From Candidatus Altimarinota bacterium (GTDB taxonomy: Bacteria > Patescibacteriota > Gracilibacteria > UBA1369): DNA of 64,000 nucleotides. The notes below the pieces were generated by a model, which saw only the letters and a program-made list of their open reading frames with translations, ran no database searches and was not told the origin of the DNA. Numbering within the stretch: the first letter of the stretch is position 1; each line of letters starts with the position of its first letter. Position numbers and translations under genes: made by a program. The stretch lies in NCBI GenBank assembly GCA_963677745.1, contig OY782391.1, forward strand, positions 416,001 to 480,000, read 5' to 3'. Shown piece after piece: positions 37,785 through 49,493 of this stretch.

Positions 37785-38558
37785 ATGCTTGCAATTTGTT
37801 CAGACAGTCTCAAGGGGTACGGCCTAAACCGCATTTTCAAGTTGGTCAAGGAAGCCGGTTTTGACGGCCTGGATCTGAATATCGATCCAAAAAACTTCGA
37901 CACCCAGAACGCCGAATACGTAAAAACACTGGTCGATCAGTATCAGTTACCGGTTCTGGCACTTTCCACCCCTATCACCAGTTCCGCCAAAAAAATCCAG
38001 GGAGCAGTGGATATGGCCAAAACACTCGGTACCAAAGTAATTGTCATCCAGCCCCCCAAGATTTTTGATTTTCAATATTCGACCTGGCTCAAAAACGAAA
38101 TCCCCAAGATCAGACAACGTGAAAACATCTCCATTGCGCTGGAAAACGCCCCCTCGGAAACTTTCCTGGGAATTATTCCGGAGCATTCCATGAACAATGT
38201 GATCGACCTGAAAAAATTCAAACATGTCTGTGTCGACACCACCCGCGTGGCCACCAGAAAAGAAGACCTGATCCGCATTTATAAAGCCCTCAAGCCTTAC
38301 CTGGTCCATGTCCACCTCAGCAACCTCAAAAGCGGTACTCCTTACAGCCTGCCGGATACCGGTATTCTGCCCATCGAGAGTTTTCTGACCAAACTGAAAC
38401 AGGACGGTTTCCCGGGTACCATTTCCATGAAAATCAATCCGAAATTTTTGGATCTGGAGGACCTCAACAAACTCAAAAAACATCTGGATGATCTGCTGAA
38501 GTTCTACACCACCTACTTCACCAATATCAAAACCCTAAAATCAACCGAGTCAGCGTGA
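37785..38558 (+). CDS. Xylose-isomerase-like (AP endonuclease 2) TIM-barrel protein with degenerate metal ligands
   Basis: AGFDGLDL, IALEN, VDTTR, HVHLSN, PDTGILP, GFPGTISMK. Confidence 0.78.
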   Translation: MLAICSDSLKGYGLNRIFKLVKEAGFDGLDLNIDPKNFDTQNAEYVKTLVDQYQLPVLALSTPITSSAKKIQGAVDMAKTLGTKVIVIQPPKIFDFQYSTWLKNEIPKIRQRENISIALENAPSETFLGIIPEHSMNNVIDLKKFKHVCVDTTRVATRKEDLIRIYKALKPYLVHVHLSNLKSGTPYSLPDTGILPIESFLTKLKQDGFPGTISMKINPKFLDLEDLNKLKKHLDDLLKFYTTYFTNIKTLKSTESA

Positions 38559-39265
38559 AAAACCTGATCGAACTTTCCGGCGTCGGTAAAATTTATCACC
38601 TGGGACGGGAAAAAATCCCCGCTTTGAAGGACATTGACCTGTCCATCCGGAAAGGCGAATTTTTAAGTATTATCGGGCCATCCGGTTCCGGCAAATCCAC
38701 CCTGTTGCATCTGATCGGTCTGATGGACAAACCCGACCACGGCAATATTATTTTTGAGGAAAACGATACAAAAAAACTGAACGAATCGGAGCTGGCCAGG
38801 TTCCGCTCGGAAAAAATCGGTTTTGTCTTTCAGGATTTCAATCTGATGGAAGACCTGACCCTGGAAGATAACATCGCCTTGCCCTTACTGATCCAATCGG
38901 GCAAAAACAGTCTCTCTGACATCGAAAACAAAAGACTGAAGTTTTTTCTGCAAAAAATGGATCTGGAAAACCGCAAAAAACACAAACCGCGACAGGTTTC
39001 CGGCGGACAGAAACAGCGCGCGGCCATAGCCCGCGCGCTGATCACGTCCCCTTCCCTGCTCCTGGCCGACGAACCGACCGGCAATCTGGACCCGCACACC
39101 GGCCATCAGATCATCGAATTGCTGCAGGCGCTGTGCCGTGACAACCAGACCACCATGATCATAGTCACCCATGACCAGCAGGTCGCCGATCGGGCCGACC
39201 GGCTGATCCAGCTGAGCGAAGGCCGCATCAGTTCACATTTATCCGCCAAAAAATATCTCGGTTAA
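38555..39265 (+). CDS. ABC transporter ATP-binding protein (LolD/MacB-like)
   Basis: [31 protein letters not shown]. Confidence 0.95.
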
Positions 39266-40533
39266 TGTACATCAAACTAATTAAAAGCAGCTGGAAAGCC
39301 GAACCAAGGAAAATTATCCTGATGTTTTCCGCGCTGACACTGGGACTGGTACTGATCACCCTGCTGTCCGCCCTCAACAGCGGACTGAAAAATTTCTTTT
39401 TTGCGGAAAGCCAGCAGGAAAAGATTCTCCGCGAATTGAATGTTAAAACCAAAAGCCAAACCCTGGGACTAAGCCTGGTTAACCTGATTCCGCATGCTGA
39501 ACTGACCACCGCCACCCTCGATCAGATCAAAAAGATACCCGGTGTGGCGGAAGTTCTTCCCACCAATACCATCAGCGGCATTTCCTCTTTGCAGATCGGC
39601 ATCCTGGGACAGTGGTTTCAAACCGACGCTCTATTATATGGGGCAGGTTATGAACTTCTGGACAGTAAAACCGTCACGGCCAACGCCTGGAACAATTATC
39701 AGGAACCTTACCCCGCTGTAGTTTCGTCCAAACTGATCGATCTCTATAATTTTTCTTTCGCCAATGCCAACAACCTGCCCCAGTTGACCGAAGAAAATTT
39801 TCTGGGTTCGGAAGTCAGAGTCCTGCTCAATCAATCCACCTTCTTTGCCGCCAATACAGGAGAGGTAAAGGAACTGCGGGCCAAAATTATCGGATTCTCT
39901 CCCAACGTAAAATTAATCGGCCTGACACTGCCGCTACCGGCCATCGAAAGAATCAACCGTGACTTCCTCAACAAAAACGACTCCTACTTCCTGGACGCAA
40001 CCGTCCGGGTCAAGTCCCCCAAAGAACTCAGTGCGGTAAAAAGCCGCCTGGAAGAATTGGGACTGGATGTGAAAACCGCCGAATCAAGTCTCAAGTCACT
40101 GGAAAAACTGTTTTTTCTGACTGATCTGGCCCTCAATATTTTCCTGGCAATCATGATCATCATGGCCGGCCTGTTGATCTCATCAACTTTCCTGGCCAAA
40201 ATTGCTGAAAAAAGCAGGGAAATTGCCATTCTCAAAACACTGGGAATGACCGGACCAAGAATTTCACTTCTTTATCTGCTGGAAGCGGCTCTGGTAGGAC
40301 TGGGGGCCAGCATCGCCGGAATCATCCTGGCCTATTTAATCTCCCTGCCCCTGGAATCTTTGATCGCCTATTCGGTAAAAACTCTCATCAATAAACCCGA
40401 AAGATTTTTCCAGTTCAGTCCGGGACAAAATTTATTGTTAATTTTATTCGCGGTTTTAATATCCTGCCTGTTCGCCTATTTTCCCTCTCGCAAAGCGGCA
40501 AAACTCGATCCGATAGAAATCCTGGCCAGGTGA
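39265..40533 (+). CDS. ABC transporter permease (MacB/FtsX family)
   Basis: 1+3 TM architecture, REIAILKTLG, PSRKAAKLDPIEIL. Confidence 0.92.
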   Translation: MYIKLIKSSWKAEPRKIILMFSALTLGLVLITLLSALNSGLKNFFFAESQQEKILRELNVKTKSQTLGLSLVNLIPHAELTTATLDQIKKIPGVAEVLPTNTISGISSLQIGILGQWFQTDALLYGAGYELLDSKTVTANAWNNYQEPYPAVVSSKLIDLYNFSFANANNLPQLTEENFLGSEVRVLLNQSTFFAANTGEVKELRAKIIGFSPNVKLIGLTLPLPAIERINRDFLNKNDSYFLDATVRVKSPKELSAVKSRLEELGLDVKTAESSLKSLEKLFFLTDLALNIFLAIMIIMAGLLISSTFLAKIAEKSREIAILKTLGMTGPRISLLYLLEAALVGLGASIAGIILAYLISLPLESLIAYSVKTLINKPERFFQFSPGQNLLLILFAVLISCLFAYFPSRKAAKLDPIEILAR

Positions 40534-40591
40534 ATGGATAATCACTATTCGATCAAGTCAAGTTGTTTTTGTAGTGCATCCGATAAATGTT

Positions 40592-40619
40592 TTGACAACC
40601 GGACCGTGGTACCTATACT
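40592..40619 (+). promoter_or_regulatory. rpoB promoter
   Basis: TTGACA-N16-TATACT. Confidence 0.65.
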
Positions 40620-40638
40620 GGCGCTAGGCTGTCAGAGA

Positions 40639-40770
40639 AGTATCAGGAGTTGATTTTACTTACAACCAAGGCAACTGATCATTGCTGAAGTTTATCACCC
40701 TGCGATACTGTCGATTGCGTTGTTGAAGATAGCAATACCATCATACGGAGAGACTCTCCCGATTATGGTA
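40639..40770 (+). ncRNA. Candidate structured 5' leader of rpoB
   Basis: Helices paired by eye: AGTATC/GATACT, CAGG/CCTG, AGTTG/CAACT, TGAT/ATCA; second hairpin TACCAT/ATGGTA + GGAGA/TCTCC. Confidence 0.4.
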
Positions 40771-40801
40771 ATTGTCCCAGTATATTCATTATTTCAAGAA
40801 T

Positions 40802-43800
40802 ATGCCGAAGAAAAAATCTTCCACATCGAAAGCCAAGAAGCCACTAAAAAAAGCCGCAGCGTCAAAAAAGACCGCTTCGGTCAAAAAGCCGGTTAAGATT
40901 AAGAAAGCCCCGGCCAAAACTTCCAAACCGGTAAAAAAGACAGCAGCCAAACCAGCCCAGAAAAAGAAGGCTGTAAAGAAGGTTTTGAAAAAGACCGTCT
41001 CCAAAGCTGCCAAAAAAGCTTCCCCCGCCAAGAAAAAGCCCGCTGTCAAAAAAGCACCGGTTAAAGTTAAAAAACCGGCCGCCAAAGTCAAAGTCAAACC
41101 GGCTCCCCAGAAAACGGTCAAAAAAAACGTGCCCGTCAAACCCGTAAAAACGGTTAAAGCCAGCACGCCCAAAGTTCCGGCCAAAAAAGTTGAAAAGCCC
41201 GCCAAGGAAATCAAGGCCGTACAGCCAAAAGCCGCTCCTCAAACCGCCGCCAAGAAAACGGAAAAAGAACTTCCGGCCGCTCCTGCCAAAAAAAGCAAAG
41301 AAAACGTCCGGGAAATTCCCCGCAAATTAAACAAAGACTTTTCTCTGGCCGAAGAAGTTTCAAGACTGCTGCCCAAGGAAAACATTATCATGAAAGAATC
41401 GTCCAACCGGAGATTCTTCACCGATCGTATTGATAAAGACATTGTTCTCCCCAACCTGATCGAAATCCAGCTGGATTCCTATCGCTGGTTTCTGGACATC
41501 GGTATCCGTGAACTGCTGGATGAAATTTCTCCGATTACCGATTTCTCCGGTAAAAAACTGGAACTCCAGTTTTTGGAACATTCCGTGGACGAACCGAAAT
41601 ACGACCCTGAAACCTGCCGTCTAAAAAATCTGACTTACGAAGCTCCCCTCAAAGTCCACGTACAGCTGATCAACAAGGAAACCGGTGAAATCAAGGAACA
41701 GGACGTCTTTTTGGGCGCCATTCCGCTGATGACTCACAAAGGAACCTTTATCGTTAACGGAATCGAAAGAGTAGTTGTTTCCCAGATCGTCCGCTCCCCC
41801 GGCGTGTTTTTCTCAAGAAATGCCGGTGCCCTGAACTCCTTCAACGCCAAGATCATCCCCAAACGCGGTGCCTGGCTGGAAATCGAAACCGATAAAAAAG
41901 GTATTATCAGCGTGAAAATCGACCGCAAAAGAAAAATCCCCGTGACTTCGCTGCTGCGCGTTTTCGGTTATCCCACTGACGACGAAATCCGGGATGTTTT
42001 CAAGGATGTGATCGGAGGTCCGGATAAAGACTATATATTAAATACTCTGGACAAGGACACCTCCAAAACCGTCGACGAGGCATATCAGAACATTTACAAA
42101 AAGATCCGCCCCGGCGACCTGGCTACTCCCGAGAATGCCAAATCACTGATCCAGTCGATGTTTTTTGATTACAAGAAATACGATATGGGACCGGTGGCCA
42201 GATACAAACTCAACAAACGTTTCAACCTCAACACTCCCAACACCAAAGATTTTCATACCCTGCAGGTTGAAGACATCGTTTATATTCTGAAACATCTGAT
42301 TCAGCTCAATAACGGCATCGGCAGAGAAGATGATATCGATCATCTGGCCAACCGCCGCATCCGTGCCGTGGGTGAACTGGTGCAAAACAAATTCCGCGTG
42401 GGTTTGCTGCGCACCGACCGTATCGCCAAAGACCGCATGACAGTGATGGATCTGGAAACGGTTACCCCCACCCAGCTGATCAATTCCCGCCCGATCACCG
42501 CCGCCCTGCGCGAATTCTACGCCAGCTCACAACTTTCCCAGTTTATGGATCAGACCAATCCGCTGGCCGAACTGGCACACAAACGCCGTCTGTCCGCCAT
42601 GGGTCCCGGAGGTTTGACCAGAGAAAGAGCCTCCTTCGACGTACGTGACGTGCATCCGTCCCATTACGGAAGAATCTGCCCGATCGCCACTCCCGAAGGT
42701 CCGAACATCGGTCTGGTCGTGCATCTGGCCACTTATGCCCGCGTCAACAAATACGGCTTCATTGAAACTCCTTACCGCACCATGAACGACACCATCGCGG
42801 TCAAAGATATCAAGAAACTGAAAGGCAAGAAACTGCGCTCCGACCTGATCAATCCCGCCAACGGCAAAATTATTCTGACCAAGGAAACAGTGCTCGGTGA
42901 AAAAGAAATCGCCAAGATCAAGGATTTGGGATTTGAAACCATCAAAGTTTTCAAACACACCACCGACGACGTGCGTTATTATGCCGCCGACGAGGACAAC
43001 GACAAAGTGATCGCGCAGGCCAACACCAGACTGGATGAGGAAGGACAGATAGTCGATTCGCTGGTTTCCGGAAGACAAAACGGAGAACCGGAACTGGTTC
43101 CGGCCAAGAACATCACGCACATGGACATCTCCCCGAAACAGATTATCTCCGAGACCACGGCCCTCATTCCGTTTTTGGAACACGATGACAACACCCGCGC
43201 CTCCATGGGTTCCAACATGCAACGTCAGGCCGTCTCACTGATCTCTCCGGATGCTCCGGTGGTCGGTACCGGTATGGAAGAAATAGTCGCCAAGAGTTCC
43301 GGCCAAATCTATCTGGCCGAAAACAACGGTACGGTTTCCTACGTTGATGCCGAACAGATAGTAGTGATCTACGACAATGGTAAAAAAGCCATCTACAAAC
43401 TCAACAATTACGTCCGCTCCAACCAGTCCACCTGTATTCATCACCGGGCCAGAGTCAACAAAGGCCAAAGAGTAACACGCGGTGATGTCCTGTCCGACGG
43501 TCCGGCCACCGAAAACGGTGAATTGGCCCTGGGCAAGAATGTCCTGGTCGCCTATATGGCCTGGAAAGGTTACAACTTTGAAGACGCCGTAATAGTATCC
43601 GACCGCATCGTTAAAGCCGGCTATTTCGATTCAGTACACATTGAAGCATTTACCATCGACGTCCGCGACACCAAGCTGGGCCCTGAAATTATTACCCGGG
43701 ACATTCCCAATGTCGGTGAAGCCAGACTGAAAGATCTTGATGAAAACGGAATAGTGAGAATCGGTGCCACCGTCCGCGAAGGTGACATCCTGGTCGGTAA

Positions 43801-45088
43801 AATCACCCCCAAGGGCGAAACCGAACTTTCCGCTGAAGAAAGACTTCTCCGCGCCATTTTTGGCGACAAGGCCAGAGATGTTAAAGACACCTCGCTGCGT
43901 CTGCCCGGAGGTGAAGGCGGCAAAGTGGTGGGAGTTCAGATCTTCTCACGCTCCAACGGCGATGAACTGCCGACCGGAGTCAATCAGCAAATTAAAGTAA
44001 ACGTCGCCCAGACCAGAAAAGTATCGGTAGGTGACAAAGTGGCCGGAAGACACGGAAACAAAGGTGTCATCTCGGTCATCGTGCCTCAGGAAAATATGCC
44101 ATTTTTGGCAGACGGCACCCCGATCGACATCATTCTCAACCCGTTGGGTGTGTCATCCCGTATGAATATCGGACAGATTCTGGAAGTGCATCTCGGCTGG
44201 GCCGCCAGAAAACTTAATTTCACGGTTGCCACCCCCGCCCTTAACGGTATTCACACCGACCAGATCAAAGAACTGCTCAAACAGGCAAAACTGCCCGAAG
44301 CCGGTAAAATTCAGCTTTATGACGGTATTACCGGTGAGCCTTTTGATCATCAGACCACAGTGGGAATTGCCTATATTATGAAACTATCCCATCTGGTTGA
44401 AGATAAAATTCACGCCCGTTCAGTCGGTCCTTACTCTCTGGTCACCCAGCAGCCGCTCGGTGGTAAAGCCCAACACGGAGGACAGAGATTCGGAGAAATG
44501 GAAGTATGGGCACTGGAAGCTTATGGTGCCGCCCATACCCTGCAGGAAATGCTGACCATCAAGTCCGACGATATCTATGGCCGCGCCAAAGCCTACGAAT
44601 CAATTGTCAAAGACGAACCGATCAAGAAACCAAAAACCCCTGAATCGTTCAACGTTCTGGTACGGGAACTGCAGTCATTGGGTCTTTCCGTTAAATTTGA
44701 AAACTCACACACCTCGGCTGAAGATGAATACGAAGGTAACCCCGAACTGGAAGATGTGGCCGAAATAGAACCCGAGACCAGAGAAAGTCTGGCCCTGCAG
44801 GCGGAGATTACTCAAAAAATTGCTGCCGAAGGGGAAGAAACGGATAAAGTTGAAAAGAATGTTTCCGGAATTGAAGTGGTGAAAGACACCGAAGAAGAAA
44901 ACCTGGAAGTCAAAGAGATCAAGGAAGAAGGAGATCCTGCCGACCTGGAAGATTTCGCCAAGATGGAAGCGGAACTGGATCTGGATCAGATCGACGCCCC
45001 GGAAGAGGAACTGCGGGCTATGGAAGAAAATCCCCTGCCCCTGGAAGATCTGGATATCCCTGAAGTAGATGAAGACGTTAAGCCCTAA
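40802..45088 (+). CDS. rpoB: RNA polymerase beta subunit with K/A/P-rich N-terminal extension and acidic C-terminal tail
   Basis: [59 protein letters not shown]; ATG at 40802 (internal ATG at 41390). Confidence 0.97.
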
Positions 45089-45112: not shown

Positions 45113-45538
45113 ATGAGAAGTGTCAATAAAGTAATACTCATCGGAAATCTCACCCGCGACCCCGAACTGAGACAAACTCCGGGAGGGCAGGCGGTCTGCA
45201 CCTTCTCAATTGCCACCAACAGGGAATGGATCACCAAGGACGGCGGTAAACATTCCCTCACCGAATATCACGATCTGGTCGCCTGGGCCAAACTCGCCGA
45301 AATCTGCAGCACTCACCTCAAAAAAAGCAAACTGGTCTACGTGGAAGGATACCTGAAAACCCGCAGCTGGGAATCTCCGGAAGGAATAAAGAAATTCAAG
45401 ACGGAAATTGTCATTCAGGATCTGATCATACTGGACCGCAAAGAATACACAGCCTACAGCAGCGAAGAATTTGTCCCCCAGGATTATCCCGACGCACCGC
45501 CCGCCGCCACCGACATCGATCTGAACCTTGGTCTGTAA
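45113..45538 (+). CDS. ssb: Single-stranded DNA-binding protein (short, non-canonical tail)
   Basis: SVNKVILIGNLTRDPELR, FSIATN, VYVEGYLKTRSW. Confidence 0.95.
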   Translation: MRSVNKVILIGNLTRDPELRQTPGGQAVCTFSIATNREWITKDGGKHSLTEYHDLVAWAKLAEICSTHLKKSKLVYVEGYLKTRSWESPEGIKKFKTEIVIQDLIILDRKEYTAYSSEEFVPQDYPDAPPAATDIDLNLGL

Positions 45539-45590: not shown

Positions 45591-48500
45591 ATGAGTTTCA
45601 ACGACAATAGTAATTCAGCCCAAAACAAAGCCCGAGAGGCCTTCGATAAAATTTCCATTTCGGTTGCTTCACCCGAAGAAATTCTGTCCTGGTCATTTGG
45701 GGAGGTAAAGAAACCGGAAACAATCAATTACCGGACACAGAAACCGGAAAGAGACGGTTTGTTTTGTGAAAAGATCTTCGGTCCCACCAAAAACTGGGAA
45801 TGTTATTGCGGAAAATACAAAAGAATCCGTTATAAGGGAATCATTTGTGAAAAATGCGGAGTCGAAGTCACCCACTCCTCAGTCCGCCGCTCCCGCATGG
45901 GACATATTAAACTGGCCGTGCCGGTAACCCATATCTGGTTTCTGCGTTCCACACCTTCCAGAATCGGCCTGCTTTTGGATCTGCCCATCAAAGCCATTGA
46001 ACAGGTCGTTTATTTTGCCGCCTATGTCATCACCGAAGTTGATGAAAAAGCCAAGGAAGAGGCCCGTGAACAGCTGACCAACGAATACAAGAACCTCCGC
46101 AAAAAAATCCAGGAAGACTCTTCCCGTGCCACCGCCGGTGCCAATAATGAAAAAGGCAAAACCGACAAAATCGAAAAAGATTACTCCCATAAACTGGACG
46201 AACTGGACAGCCAGCACAAAAAGACCAAGGAACAGCTGGAAGGAATCCGCATCACAGCCATCTACTCCGAACTGGAATATCGTGAACTTTCAACCAAATT
46301 CGGTCAGATCTTCAAGGCTGGCATCGGCGCCGAAGCCATCCGTCATATTATCCAGAACCTCGATCTGGAAGTGATGATCAAAAATCTGGACAAAGAACTG
46401 GTAAAATCTTCCGGACAGAAGCAGAAAAAAATCATCAAAAGACTGAAATTGGCCGGAAGCCTGCTCAAAGCCGATATCCGACCGGAATGGATGATCATGA
46501 CTGTCTTACCGGTAATTCCACCGGATCTGCGTCCGATGGTACAGCTGGACGGTGGAAGATTTGCCGCCTCCGACCTGAATGACCTTTACCGCCGTGTCAT
46601 CAACAGAAACAACCGTCTGAAGAGACTGATGGCCATCGGCGCTCCCGAAGTGATCTCGCGCAATGAAAAGAGAATGCTGCAGGAAGCCGTAGACACACTT
46701 TTAAATAATTCCGCCCGCGCCGGCAAAACAGTTTTCAATTCCGGGGACAAACGGAAACTCCGCTCCCTCTCCGACATGCTCAAAGGTAAGCAGGGACGCT
46801 TCCGCCAGAACCTGCTCGGTAAACGTGTCGACTATTCCGGCCGCTCCGTAATCGTGGTAGGTCCTTCGCTGAAACTGGATCAATGCGGTTTGCCAAAACA
46901 GATGGCCATGGAACTTTTCAAACCGTTTGTGATCGGCAGACTGATCCGCGACGGACTGGCCCACAACATCAAGAGCTCGGAAAAACTGATTCAGGCCGGT
47001 ACCAAGGAAGTCTGGGATATTCTGGAAGAGGTCACCTGTGACCGCTATGTACTTTTAAACCGCGCCCCGACACTGCACAGACTGGGTATTCAGGCTTTCC
47101 GTCCCGTACTCGTTGAAGGTAAAGCCATTCAGATCCATCCGCTGGTTTGTACCGCTTTCAACGCCGACTTTGATGGAGACCAGATGGCCGTCCATGTGCC
47201 GCTTTCCAAACCGGCCCAGGAAGAAGCCAAGAATCTGATTTGTTCCAGTCACAACCTGCTTAAACCATCGGCCGGCGAACCAATTGTTACTCCGGTACAG
47301 GACATGGTATTGGGCTGTTATTATCTGACCAAGGAAACTCCGGGCAAAAACGGTGAGGGCACCAACTATACCGATCTGAATGAGGCAATCCTGGCCTGGA
47401 GAACCAGCAATCTTCACCTGCAGGCCAAAATCAAAGCCCGCTTCCGCGGAGAAATCCGTGAAACCACTCTGGGCAGACTGATTTTCAACAGTTTCCTGCC
47501 GGAAGAACTCCCCTATTACAATCAGACTTTTGGCAAAAAACAATTGAGCGCACTGCTTAACGACGCCTTTCTGATAGTCGGCGGCGCCAAAGTCGCCGAG
47601 ATCGTCGACCATCTGAAAAAAATCGGTTTTGAATTCGCCACTTATTCGGGTCTATCCATCGGCGCCGCCGACATGATCATCCCCCCCACCAAGGGCAAGA
47701 TCATCGACGATGCTTCGGGACAGATCAAACAGATCAACAATCTGTACCAAAGCGGTCTGATTACAGACAACGAGCGTTACAACCACACTATTAAGACCTG
47801 GAACAAAGCCAAAAACGAAATCTCCAAAGTGATGATCGACGGTATCGATCCCGAGAATGATCTGCACTATATGATCAACTCCGGAGCCCGTGGTAACTGG
47901 GGACAGATTACCCAGCTCTGCGGAATGAAAGGCTTGGTGGCCAATCCTTCCGGTAAGACGATCGAACTTCCCATCAAATCCAACCTCAAAGAGGGCTTTA
48001 CCATTCTGGAATACTTCATCGCCACTCACGGAGGACGTAAAGGTAAATCCGATACCGCCTTGAAAACCGCTGAAGCCGGCCATTTGACCCGTCGTCTGGT
48101 CGATTCGGTACAGGATATCATCATCAAAGAAATCGATTGCGGGTCCGTCCATTCCCATATTGTCACCAAAACCGAATCCGACCGTATCGGTGAAAAACTG
48201 GAAAACAGAATTTTCGGACGTGTTCTGGCTGAAAACGTGGTTAACCCCAAAACCGGAGAAATAATTGCCGAAAAAGGCCAGGAAGTTGACCGGAAAATCA
48301 TCAAACAGATCGAAGACTTCAACGTGGAGGAAGTTAAAGTCCGCTCAGTCATCACCTGCCGCACCCGCGGCGGTATCTGTGTCCGTTGTTACGGCAGAGA
48401 TCTTGGTACCAACAAAACCGTCGAACCCGGAACAGCCGTCGGTATCATCGCCGCACAGTCAATCGGAGAACCTGGTACGCAGTTGACGATGAGAACCTTC

Positions 48501-49493
48501 CACATGGGTGGAGTTGCTTCCGAAGAAGGAGACATCACCCAGGGTCTGACCCGCGTGGAAGAACTGTTTGAAGCCCGCGCCCCCAAATCACCGGCCATCA
48601 TGACCGAACTGTCGGGTATCGCAGAAATTACCAGCAAAGGCCAACTGACCGAAATCAAAGTCACCACCGAAGAACCTCTCGAAAAAGACTATCTGCTGAT
48701 CGGAGATCTGGAAGCCACCGTCAAAAAAGGTGACGTGGTAAAAGAGAAAGAAATCATTGCCAAGTCCCCGCTGAGCAAGAATATGATCAGAGCCGAATTT
48801 AACGCCAAGATTCTGGAGGTTAACACCAATCACGTTCTGCTCCGCAGCATGGATCTGATTTCCCGCACCTATAAGATCCCCTTTGGTAAAATCATCAAGA
48901 TCAAGAACAAGGCCAAAGTTCAAAAAGGCCAGTCATTGACTTCCGGCCACCTCAACCTGCGCGATCTGATCAATCTGACCGACGTCTACACCGCCCAAAA
49001 ATATCTGGTTTCCGAGGTCCAAAGCATCTACGCCTCACAGGGACAGACCATCAACGACAAACACATTGAAATCATCGCCCGCCAGATGCTCTCCAAAGTC
49101 AGAATTGTCGACCCCGGAGAAACGCATTATCTGCCCGGTGAAGTGGTAGACATCCTGGAAGCCGAAGACGCCAACCTGAAAATGGAAAAAGAGAACAAGA
49201 AAATGGCTTCCGTGGAAAGACTGCTTTTGGGTCTAACCCGCATCTCGCTCCACACCGACAGCTGGCTCTCCGCAGCCTCATTCCAGGAAACAATCCGTGT
49301 TCTGGTCGAGGCTTCCACCACCAACAAAGTGGATGTACTGGAAGGTCTGAAGGAAAATGTTATCATCGGTAAACTGATTCCCGCCGGCGAAACCTACAGA
49401 AAACGCCACCCGGAACTGGTCGATGAATTTGCCAACCTGGGAAATAAAGAACCTCAAATGATCGAAAGGCCGAAATTCTATCCGGCCATCTAG
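45591..49493 (+). CDS. rpoC: RNA polymerase beta' subunit
   Basis: Zn-finger [43 protein letters not shown]. Confidence 0.99.

Follow-up and report, generated by a model that had tools for sequence, protein, structure and literature searches.

The question raised by this locus is whether the RNA polymerase of an uncultured bacterium carries a long, lysine-rich arm on its β subunit and, if so, what that arm might do for the enzyme. The gene concerned is rpoB, found in a 64,000 nucleotide (nt) stretch of contig OY782391.1 from Candidatus Altimarinota bacterium (assembly GCA_963677745.1), here termed the window; the nearest named records are metagenome-assembled genomes (MAGs) of Candidatus Peribacteria or Peregrinibacteria, within the Patescibacteria. 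Read from its first ATG, rpoB spans 40802..45088 on the forward strand and encodes 1428 amino acids (aa), within a longest open frame extending from a TTG at 40772 to 45088 (+). It would be translated from ATG 40802 as a single 1428 aa polypeptide in four parts: a polycationic, disordered arm of ~177 aa with a charge of about +57, a linker of ~20 aa with a short helix, a normal β core and a polyanionic tail of ~130 aa. The arm is a real, in-frame extension, not an artefact of assembly or annotation. By analogy with basic tails on other bacterial proteins, it is rather probable that it represents a translated, disordered polycationic tail giving β a non-specific affinity for nucleic acids.

The arm itself (aa 1-177; 40802..41332, +) is rich in Lys, Ala, Pro and Val and is predicted to be disordered. 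It is joined to the core by a conserved linker with a short predicted helix (aa 178-196; 41333..41389, +), which is followed by an internal ATG (41390..41392, +) encoding Met197, at the position of the canonical RpoB N-terminus and therefore a candidate secondary start. The catalytic core (aa 218-1300; 41453..44701, +) contains six Pfam RNA polymerase Rpb2 domains, all above cut-offs with E-values from 8.5e-128 to 4.2e-18, in the complete order of protrusion, lobe, fork, external 1, hybrid-binding and anchor, which identifies the protein as RpoB; the first of these, RNA_pol_Rpb2_1, begins at residue 218, at the motif LPNLIEIQ. The last 134 aa form an acidic C-terminal tail (44684..45085, +). 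This is the single rpoB match in the closed genome of 1,335,835 bp. The first-pass annotation of the window, made from its letters alone, had described the RpoB frame as open through the N-terminal extension, as is indeed the case: 196 codons separate 40802 from the internal ATG at 41390, in frame and free of stops. The concern that a stop or frameshift had been missed at 41300-41400 is answered by Logan contigs from four sequencing runs in two studies, which match the window over 40500-41700 without a single gap or differing letter; in three of the four runs, one piece spans this region. As these runs may include the source sample of the window, their independence is not full, and the comparative evidence for the arm is the stronger for that reason.

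The linker, which has the consensus AEEISKLLPKENI(I/V)MKE upstream of and across the internal Met (alignment A1), and a helix predicted at residues 182-188 by AlphaFold2, is informative as to whether this part of the gene is translated. Across 32 distinct relatives, four residues just upstream of the internal Met were compared by codon: a Leu is present in 32/32 and uses six codons, a Pro in 32/32 with four codons, a Lys in 31/32 with two codons and a Glu in 31/32, again with two. In all, eight codons 5' of the internal Met are kept as protein. Since the amino acids are fixed and the codons vary freely, selection appears to act on the protein, and the linker is therefore translated. Substitution rates are in agreement: relative to the same-genus genome G002, the ratio of non-synonymous to synonymous substitution rates (dN/dS) is 0.04 for aa 176-215 and 0.03 for the core; in the arm it is about 0.2, with a proportion of differing non-synonymous sites (pN) of 0.39 and of synonymous sites (pS) of 0.72, although alignments of the arm are uncertain owing to its low-complexity sequence. 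Synonymous sites are near saturation against G002 and saturated in most pairs, such that dS is not computable for the latter, and the comparison accordingly uses pN against pS together with the ratios for G002, G017 and G024.

The most likely start of rpoB is the ATG at 40802..40804 (+), giving a protein that begins MPKKK and corresponding to a first in-frame start conserved as MPKK or MAKK. Its context score of 4.90 falls at the 67th percentile of 710 starts in the genome and at the 99.6th percentile of 5531 internal in-frame ATGs, while the TTG upstream at 40772 scores -3.31, which is atypical of the genome's starts. In G002, the preceding stop lies only one codon before the MPKKK start. Judged from the sequences, the correct start of rpoB, both here and in the relatives, is the upstream MPKK/MAKK codon and not the canonical-length start. 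The conservation of the linker as protein, the excess of pS over pN and the typical start context at 40802 together indicate that the full-length, armed RpoB is made.

In composition, the first 180 residues comprise 34% Lys, 17% Ala, 12% Pro and 11% Val, with a net charge of +57, and the first 130 include 50 Lys with 0 Arg, 0 Asp, 0 Glu and 0 aromatic residues, in keeping with the original description of a Lys/Ala/Pro/Val-rich stretch of ~130 aa almost devoid of acidic and aromatic residues. AlphaFold2, given residues 1-640 and an alignment of 33 rows, models aa 1-180 as coil without secondary structure, at a predicted local distance difference test (pLDDT) score of 40-50; the model is mediocre overall (mean pLDDT 59.7, predicted template modelling score 0.46), in part through truncation of the protein. 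Its 34% Lys accompanied by Ala and Pro, the near absence of acidic and aromatic residues and the predicted disorder place the arm in the class of tails resembling the C-terminal domain of histone H1, for which ~30-40% Lys is characteristic; this is a compositional class and not a homologous family. 'H1-like' describes the composition of the arm only. The winged-helix globular domain of linker histones H1/H5 was not detected in the Pfam scan (E ≤ 0.01), and the AlphaFold2 model shows no folded element in aa 1-180; the same Pfam scan of the whole of RpoB detected the six polymerase families and none on the arm, including none relating it to the Hc1/Hc2 or AlgP families. The arm is consequently ruled out as a member of the linker histone family, having neither the globular domain nor a Pfam match. 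A word-seeded search with aa 1-180 returned 0 of 8000 candidates (proteins of 785-2499 aa) at E ≤ 0.001, by a method weak for low-complexity sequence and silent on uniqueness, and the top scores for residues 1-200 in the ESM Atlas, 0.77-0.80, were all to RpoB N-terminal clusters and below a meaningful level.

The arm recurs among related genomes. Matches to rpoB were present in 23 of the 24 other genomes of the family, with open frames of 1308-1464 aa lacking internal stops, except that the frame in G007 is cut at 1013; the single genome without a match is 70% complete. The N-termini of related RpoB proteins, to which the first-pass annotation had pointed as a check, bear a Lys-rich arm in 24/24 family loci (G000, the genome of the window, included), beginning MPKK, MAKK or a close variant and ranging over 98-241 aa (counted from the first ATG up to LPNLIEIQ), of which 25-33% are Lys. 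Differences in length among relatives are always frame-preserving. RpoB open frames in other families of the order are 1182-1338 aa. Among species-representative genomes, 65 of 80 loci were measurable: the 28 closest (L032-L059, from records named Peribacteria or Peregrinibacteria) have arms of 106-259 aa, and the remaining 37 have 29-159 aa. For at least six of these loci (L040, L041, L044, L050, L055 and L106), a short stretch without Lys enrichment separates the first ATG from M[AP]KK, and the lengths given may be 9-17 aa too long. Of 40 regions sampled across the class, 29 were measurable and most N-termini were 18-57 aa, the longer ones including those of family f24, at about 126-153 aa (a fourth f24 locus reaching 216 aa from a first ATG upstream of its Lys-rich start), and those of families f19, f22, f32 and f33, at 72-99 aa. 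Loci in which the motif was missed by the regular expression, namely three of 30 at the family and order level (L026, L028 and L031, from other families), 15 of 80 and 11 of 40, are excluded from these ranges. Outside the class, 96 patescibacterial genomes were surveyed by open-frame length only; RpoB has 1067-1219 aa in 94 of them, the other two being fragmentary, which leaves no room for an arm and tail of the size seen here. From these comparisons the arm emerges as a trait of the lineage: it is long in this family but short in the order as a whole, and several further families of the class have one of intermediate length (about 72-153 aa).

Nor does such a segment appear to reflect the composition of the genome at large. 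A strict composition scan of 1210 open reading frames (ORFs) found Lys-rich segments in only four proteins, indicating that the arm is not a by-product of a genome-wide bias: RpoB, with by far the longest segment at 161 aa, GreA, a protein of 93 aa and a YtxH-like protein. GreA, another partner of RNA polymerase, ranks second by length, its segment being the N-terminal 47 aa. Its gene (G000:C1:197004-197657, -; locus L182), which lies outside the window, gives the protein about 47-58 extra N-terminal residues rich in Lys, and as GreA open frames are 208-233 aa in the closest genera and about 170-190 aa elsewhere, this arm appears limited to the closest genera. A putative rpoD, named by eye, adjoins greA. 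The 93 aa protein (G000:C1:378157-378438, +; L183), likewise encoded outside the window, matches no Pfam family and has a Lys/Ala-rich tail as its C-terminal half, making it a candidate stand-alone H1-like nucleoid protein. In the YtxH-like protein, the Lys-rich segment is its tail.

Lysine-rich, H1-like tails occur on bacterial nucleoid proteins, topoisomerase I, Ku and CarD, and are also found on the chlamydial proteins Hc1 and Hc2. The N-terminus of β is situated at the outer surface of RNA polymerase; DNA to either side of the polymerase would be within the reach of an arm some 180 residues long. Non-specific binding to nucleic acid, for which the lysine repeats of TopA, the basic domain of CarD and the extension of mycobacterial HU provide precedents, would be the most economical reading of the arm. 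It would let the polymerase attract DNA, and possibly nascent RNA as well, electrostatically and irrespective of sequence, and in this manner may retain the polymerase on the nucleoid, raise its residence and stabilise its complexes, so that the enzyme probably stays loosely attached to nucleic acid. The acidic tail, for its part, may dampen this attraction or act as a competitor. The suggestion in the first-pass annotation that the polymerase carries a nucleoid-tethering or condensing module has thus fared differently in its two parts: the module is real, conserved, similar in composition to the H1 C-terminal domain and disordered in the AlphaFold2 model, and its binding is argued by analogy.

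Of the precedents, the closest in arrangement may be set out in turn. In Streptomyces, the lysine repeats of TopA have been reported to stabilise the complex of the enzyme with DNA and to raise its processivity (PMC5714199). As with the arm, an enzyme that tracks along DNA is extended directly by a long, Lys-rich stretch of low complexity; the host enzyme and the phylum are different, and the tail is C-terminal in TopA but N-terminal here, with sequence homology neither detected nor expected. Myxobacterial CarD binds the β subunit of RNA polymerase and possesses an acidic region together with a basic, disordered DNA-binding domain, for which histone H1, or the C-terminal region of H1, can reportedly substitute (PMC8156234). 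That domain, HMGA- or H1-like and adjacent to the acidic region, therefore offers a second case of a basic disordered tail and an acidic stretch being brought to β. By contrast with the present protein, CarD is a separate factor that docks through its CarD_CdnL_TRCF domain, whereas here the tails are within β itself, at its opposite ends. Similarly, mycobacterial HU (HupB/MtHU) is described as having an H1-like, lysine-rich C-terminal extension (PMC13010138), and AlgP has been termed H1-like (PMC9239181). The disordered, Lys/Ala/Pro-rich composition is common to HupB/MtHU, AlgP, Hc1/Hc2 and the arm, but the former are small architectural proteins and the latter forms part of a catalytic polymerase subunit.

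Several observations weigh against nucleic-acid binding as the function of the arm, or against DNA as its ligand. The sequence and length of the arm drift fast, with 43-53% identity among close genera and lengths of 98-241 aa; selection is apparently on composition only, and low-complexity sequence that expands largely neutrally could give a similar picture. HU, in one copy, and the C-terminal domain of the α subunit are both encoded, leaving no obvious missing function to replace, and the idea that the arm substitutes for the absence of either is rejected on the same grounds. The charges of the arm and of the acidic tail were not found to covary (Spearman rho -0.17, p = 0.42, n = 26), which lends no support to a coupled acid-base mechanism. 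Furthermore, the tail of PhaF is reported to bind RNA (PMC12818456), and that of AlgP to organise polyphosphate granules (PMC9239181), cases which show that DNA is not the sole candidate ligand for such an arm.

On this last point, the main ligand may instead be nascent RNA or ribosomes, with a role in coupling or chaperoning, or polyphosphate, or the arm may form a block polyampholyte with the tail that drives clustering of the polymerase. Taken together, these possibilities seem unlikely. Beyond the behaviour of the tails of PhaF and AlgP, they are consistent with the Lys-rich arm on GreA of the same genome and with the opposed charges at the two ends of β. The tail of RpoB has 36% Asp and Glu over its 134 aa and a net charge of -37, against the +57 of the arm, and the mean charges across 26 relatives, +35 for arms and -36 for tails, nearly cancel. 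Acidic tails of 73-166 aa with 27-45% Asp and Glu are, however, found in 30/30 relatives of the order, those with very short arms included (in G031, an arm of 34 aa accompanies a tail of 93 aa); this, along with the absence of covariation in charge, counts against these readings, and the present data do not tell the possible ligands apart. The acidic C-terminal region of the Firmicute RNA polymerase delta subunit and region 1.1 of sigma-70 are polyanionic, disordered segments that compete with nucleic acids, and are possible analogues of the acidic tail, although they belong to a separate subunit or to sigma and not to β.

A more specific and slightly less likely proposal, put forward speculatively, is that β is a block polyampholyte (about +57 and about -37) in which the tail masks the arm, within or between molecules, until displaced by DNA. 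This could provide a switch sensitive to salt or DNA, or lead to self-clustering on the nucleoid, and might be shared with the arm of GreA and linked to the single-stranded DNA-binding protein (ssb) paralogue encoded downstream of rpoB. If true, it would represent a bacterial counterpart, in a core subunit, of transcription hubs driven by disordered tails.

The first-pass annotation also proposed that alternative starts could give armed and unarmed enzyme. Under this explanation, a full-length armed β would coexist with an unarmed β of normal length initiated at ATG 41390, giving two kinds of polymerase per cell. Met197 is at the position of the canonical RpoB start, 19 aa before LPNLIEIQ, and with a score of 0.52 the context of ATG 41390 outscores 91% of the 5531 internal in-frame ATGs; the same score, nevertheless, is low among real starts (22nd percentile), and ~9% of internal ATGs match it. 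The AAGGA noted in the first-pass annotation is indeed present at 41375-41379, 10 nt upstream of the ATG, but it also constitutes Lys-Glu codons of the conserved linker, and the key Lys codon is AAG in 12/31 relatives and AAA in 19/31, which does not depart from the 28% AAG of the arm background (binomial p = 0.23). The genome moreover avoids Shine-Dalgarno (SD) motifs at its starts: of the 914 ORFs with 150 aa or more, 41 have an SD-like word of 4-5 letters at -20..-4, the starts in this census being longest-ORF guesses, whereas such words occur in 133 of 914 intragenic control windows, and at -15..-1 G falls to 7-10% as A and T rise. Despite this depletion, the 3' end of the 16S rRNA (L218:1501-1530, -) retains CCTCC. 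The internal residue is Met in 28/32 relatives, Ile in three and Leu in one, and it follows that at least those four make armed β only; a Met that is replaced by Ile or Leu could be conserved merely as a hydrophobic residue. Neither an internal start in all relatives nor an initiation signal preceding it is therefore conserved, and the production of two isoforms appears doubtful, to about the same extent as a main ligand other than DNA.

Less plausible still is the explanation that the arm is a tolerated, near-neutral low-complexity expansion, generated by repeat slippage in an A-rich coding region and having no specific function. This would account for the span of lengths within one family and the low sequence identity noted above, and short tandem repeats are present, with 2.6 copies of an 18 nt unit at 40847-40891 and an obvious repeated unit in the arm of the relative L018. 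The window's arm contains just two weak arrays, and its description as a clean tandem-repeat array is rejected. Against neutral expansion, the arm is retained in all 24 family loci, each at 25-33% Lys, and shorter arms extend across the order; pN in the arm is below pS; and the confinement of such segments to four of 1210 ORFs indicates no genome-wide drift. We regard it as improbable. The last alternative, that the extension is untranslated, with the gene truly starting at 41390 and the upstream frame being a leader or an assembly or annotation artefact, draws on the capacity of the arm's A-rich, low-complexity DNA to open other frames (its opposite strand contains two such ORFs, 126 and 141 aa long), but is already contradicted by the frame being kept in every relative despite many changes of length, the conserved residues with varying codons before Met197, the relatives that have no internal Met, the identical contigs of four runs and the typical start context of 40802, and is therefore highly improbable.

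The surroundings of rpoB differ from the usual arrangement. Directly upstream are genes for an ABC ATPase and an FtsX-like permease (38555-40533, +) and not the usual rplKAJL; those for L10 and L7/L12 were not searched for. The 268 nt spacer preceding rpoB includes a promoter-like site at 40592..40619 (+), TTGACA and TATACT separated by 16 nt with 11/12 matches, which is a candidate on the basis of consensus match, three such sites having been found where 1.1 were expected from shuffles. No known leader RNA was detected in an Rfam scan of 40300-41500 at E ≤ 1, the sole match, to a Yersinia sRNA, being at chance level (14 bits, against a gathering score of 428 bits). The 30 nt before the MPKK/MAKK start (40772-40801 in the window, and in L003-L058) are T-rich and G-poor, and a TTCAC-like word recurs ~15-20 nt upstream of the rpoB start in many genera, which could be a conserved leader or promoter element. 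Downstream, the ssb paralogue (45113..45538, +; Pfam SSB, E 8e-34) is inserted between rpoB and rpoC, the latter a 1300 aa ORF at 45591..49493 (+) named from reading its translation only. The paralogue follows rpoB in 23/30 relatives, rpoC follows directly in five and the order is unreadable in two. Three SSB genes are present in the genome, and a link of this paralogue to transcription is possible.

No description of a lysine-rich extension on RpoB or another core polymerase subunit, in Patescibacteria or elsewhere, was found among open-access papers and bioRxiv, though prior mention elsewhere is possible. A survey of β and β' architecture masked, according to its figure legends, terminal residues beyond the shared bacterial core for clarity, and reports internal insertions only (PMC11515920). 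The arm is therefore best described as a tail of known type whose host protein is new and central, a combination that is apparently undescribed. If it does bind DNA, a whole lineage of small-genome, uncultured bacteria would transcribe with a self-anchored polymerase that also bears an acidic counter-tail. This would bear on promoter search, processivity and the organisation of the nucleoid in minimal cells, and would offer a natural system in which to study disordered tails on a bacterial polymerase.

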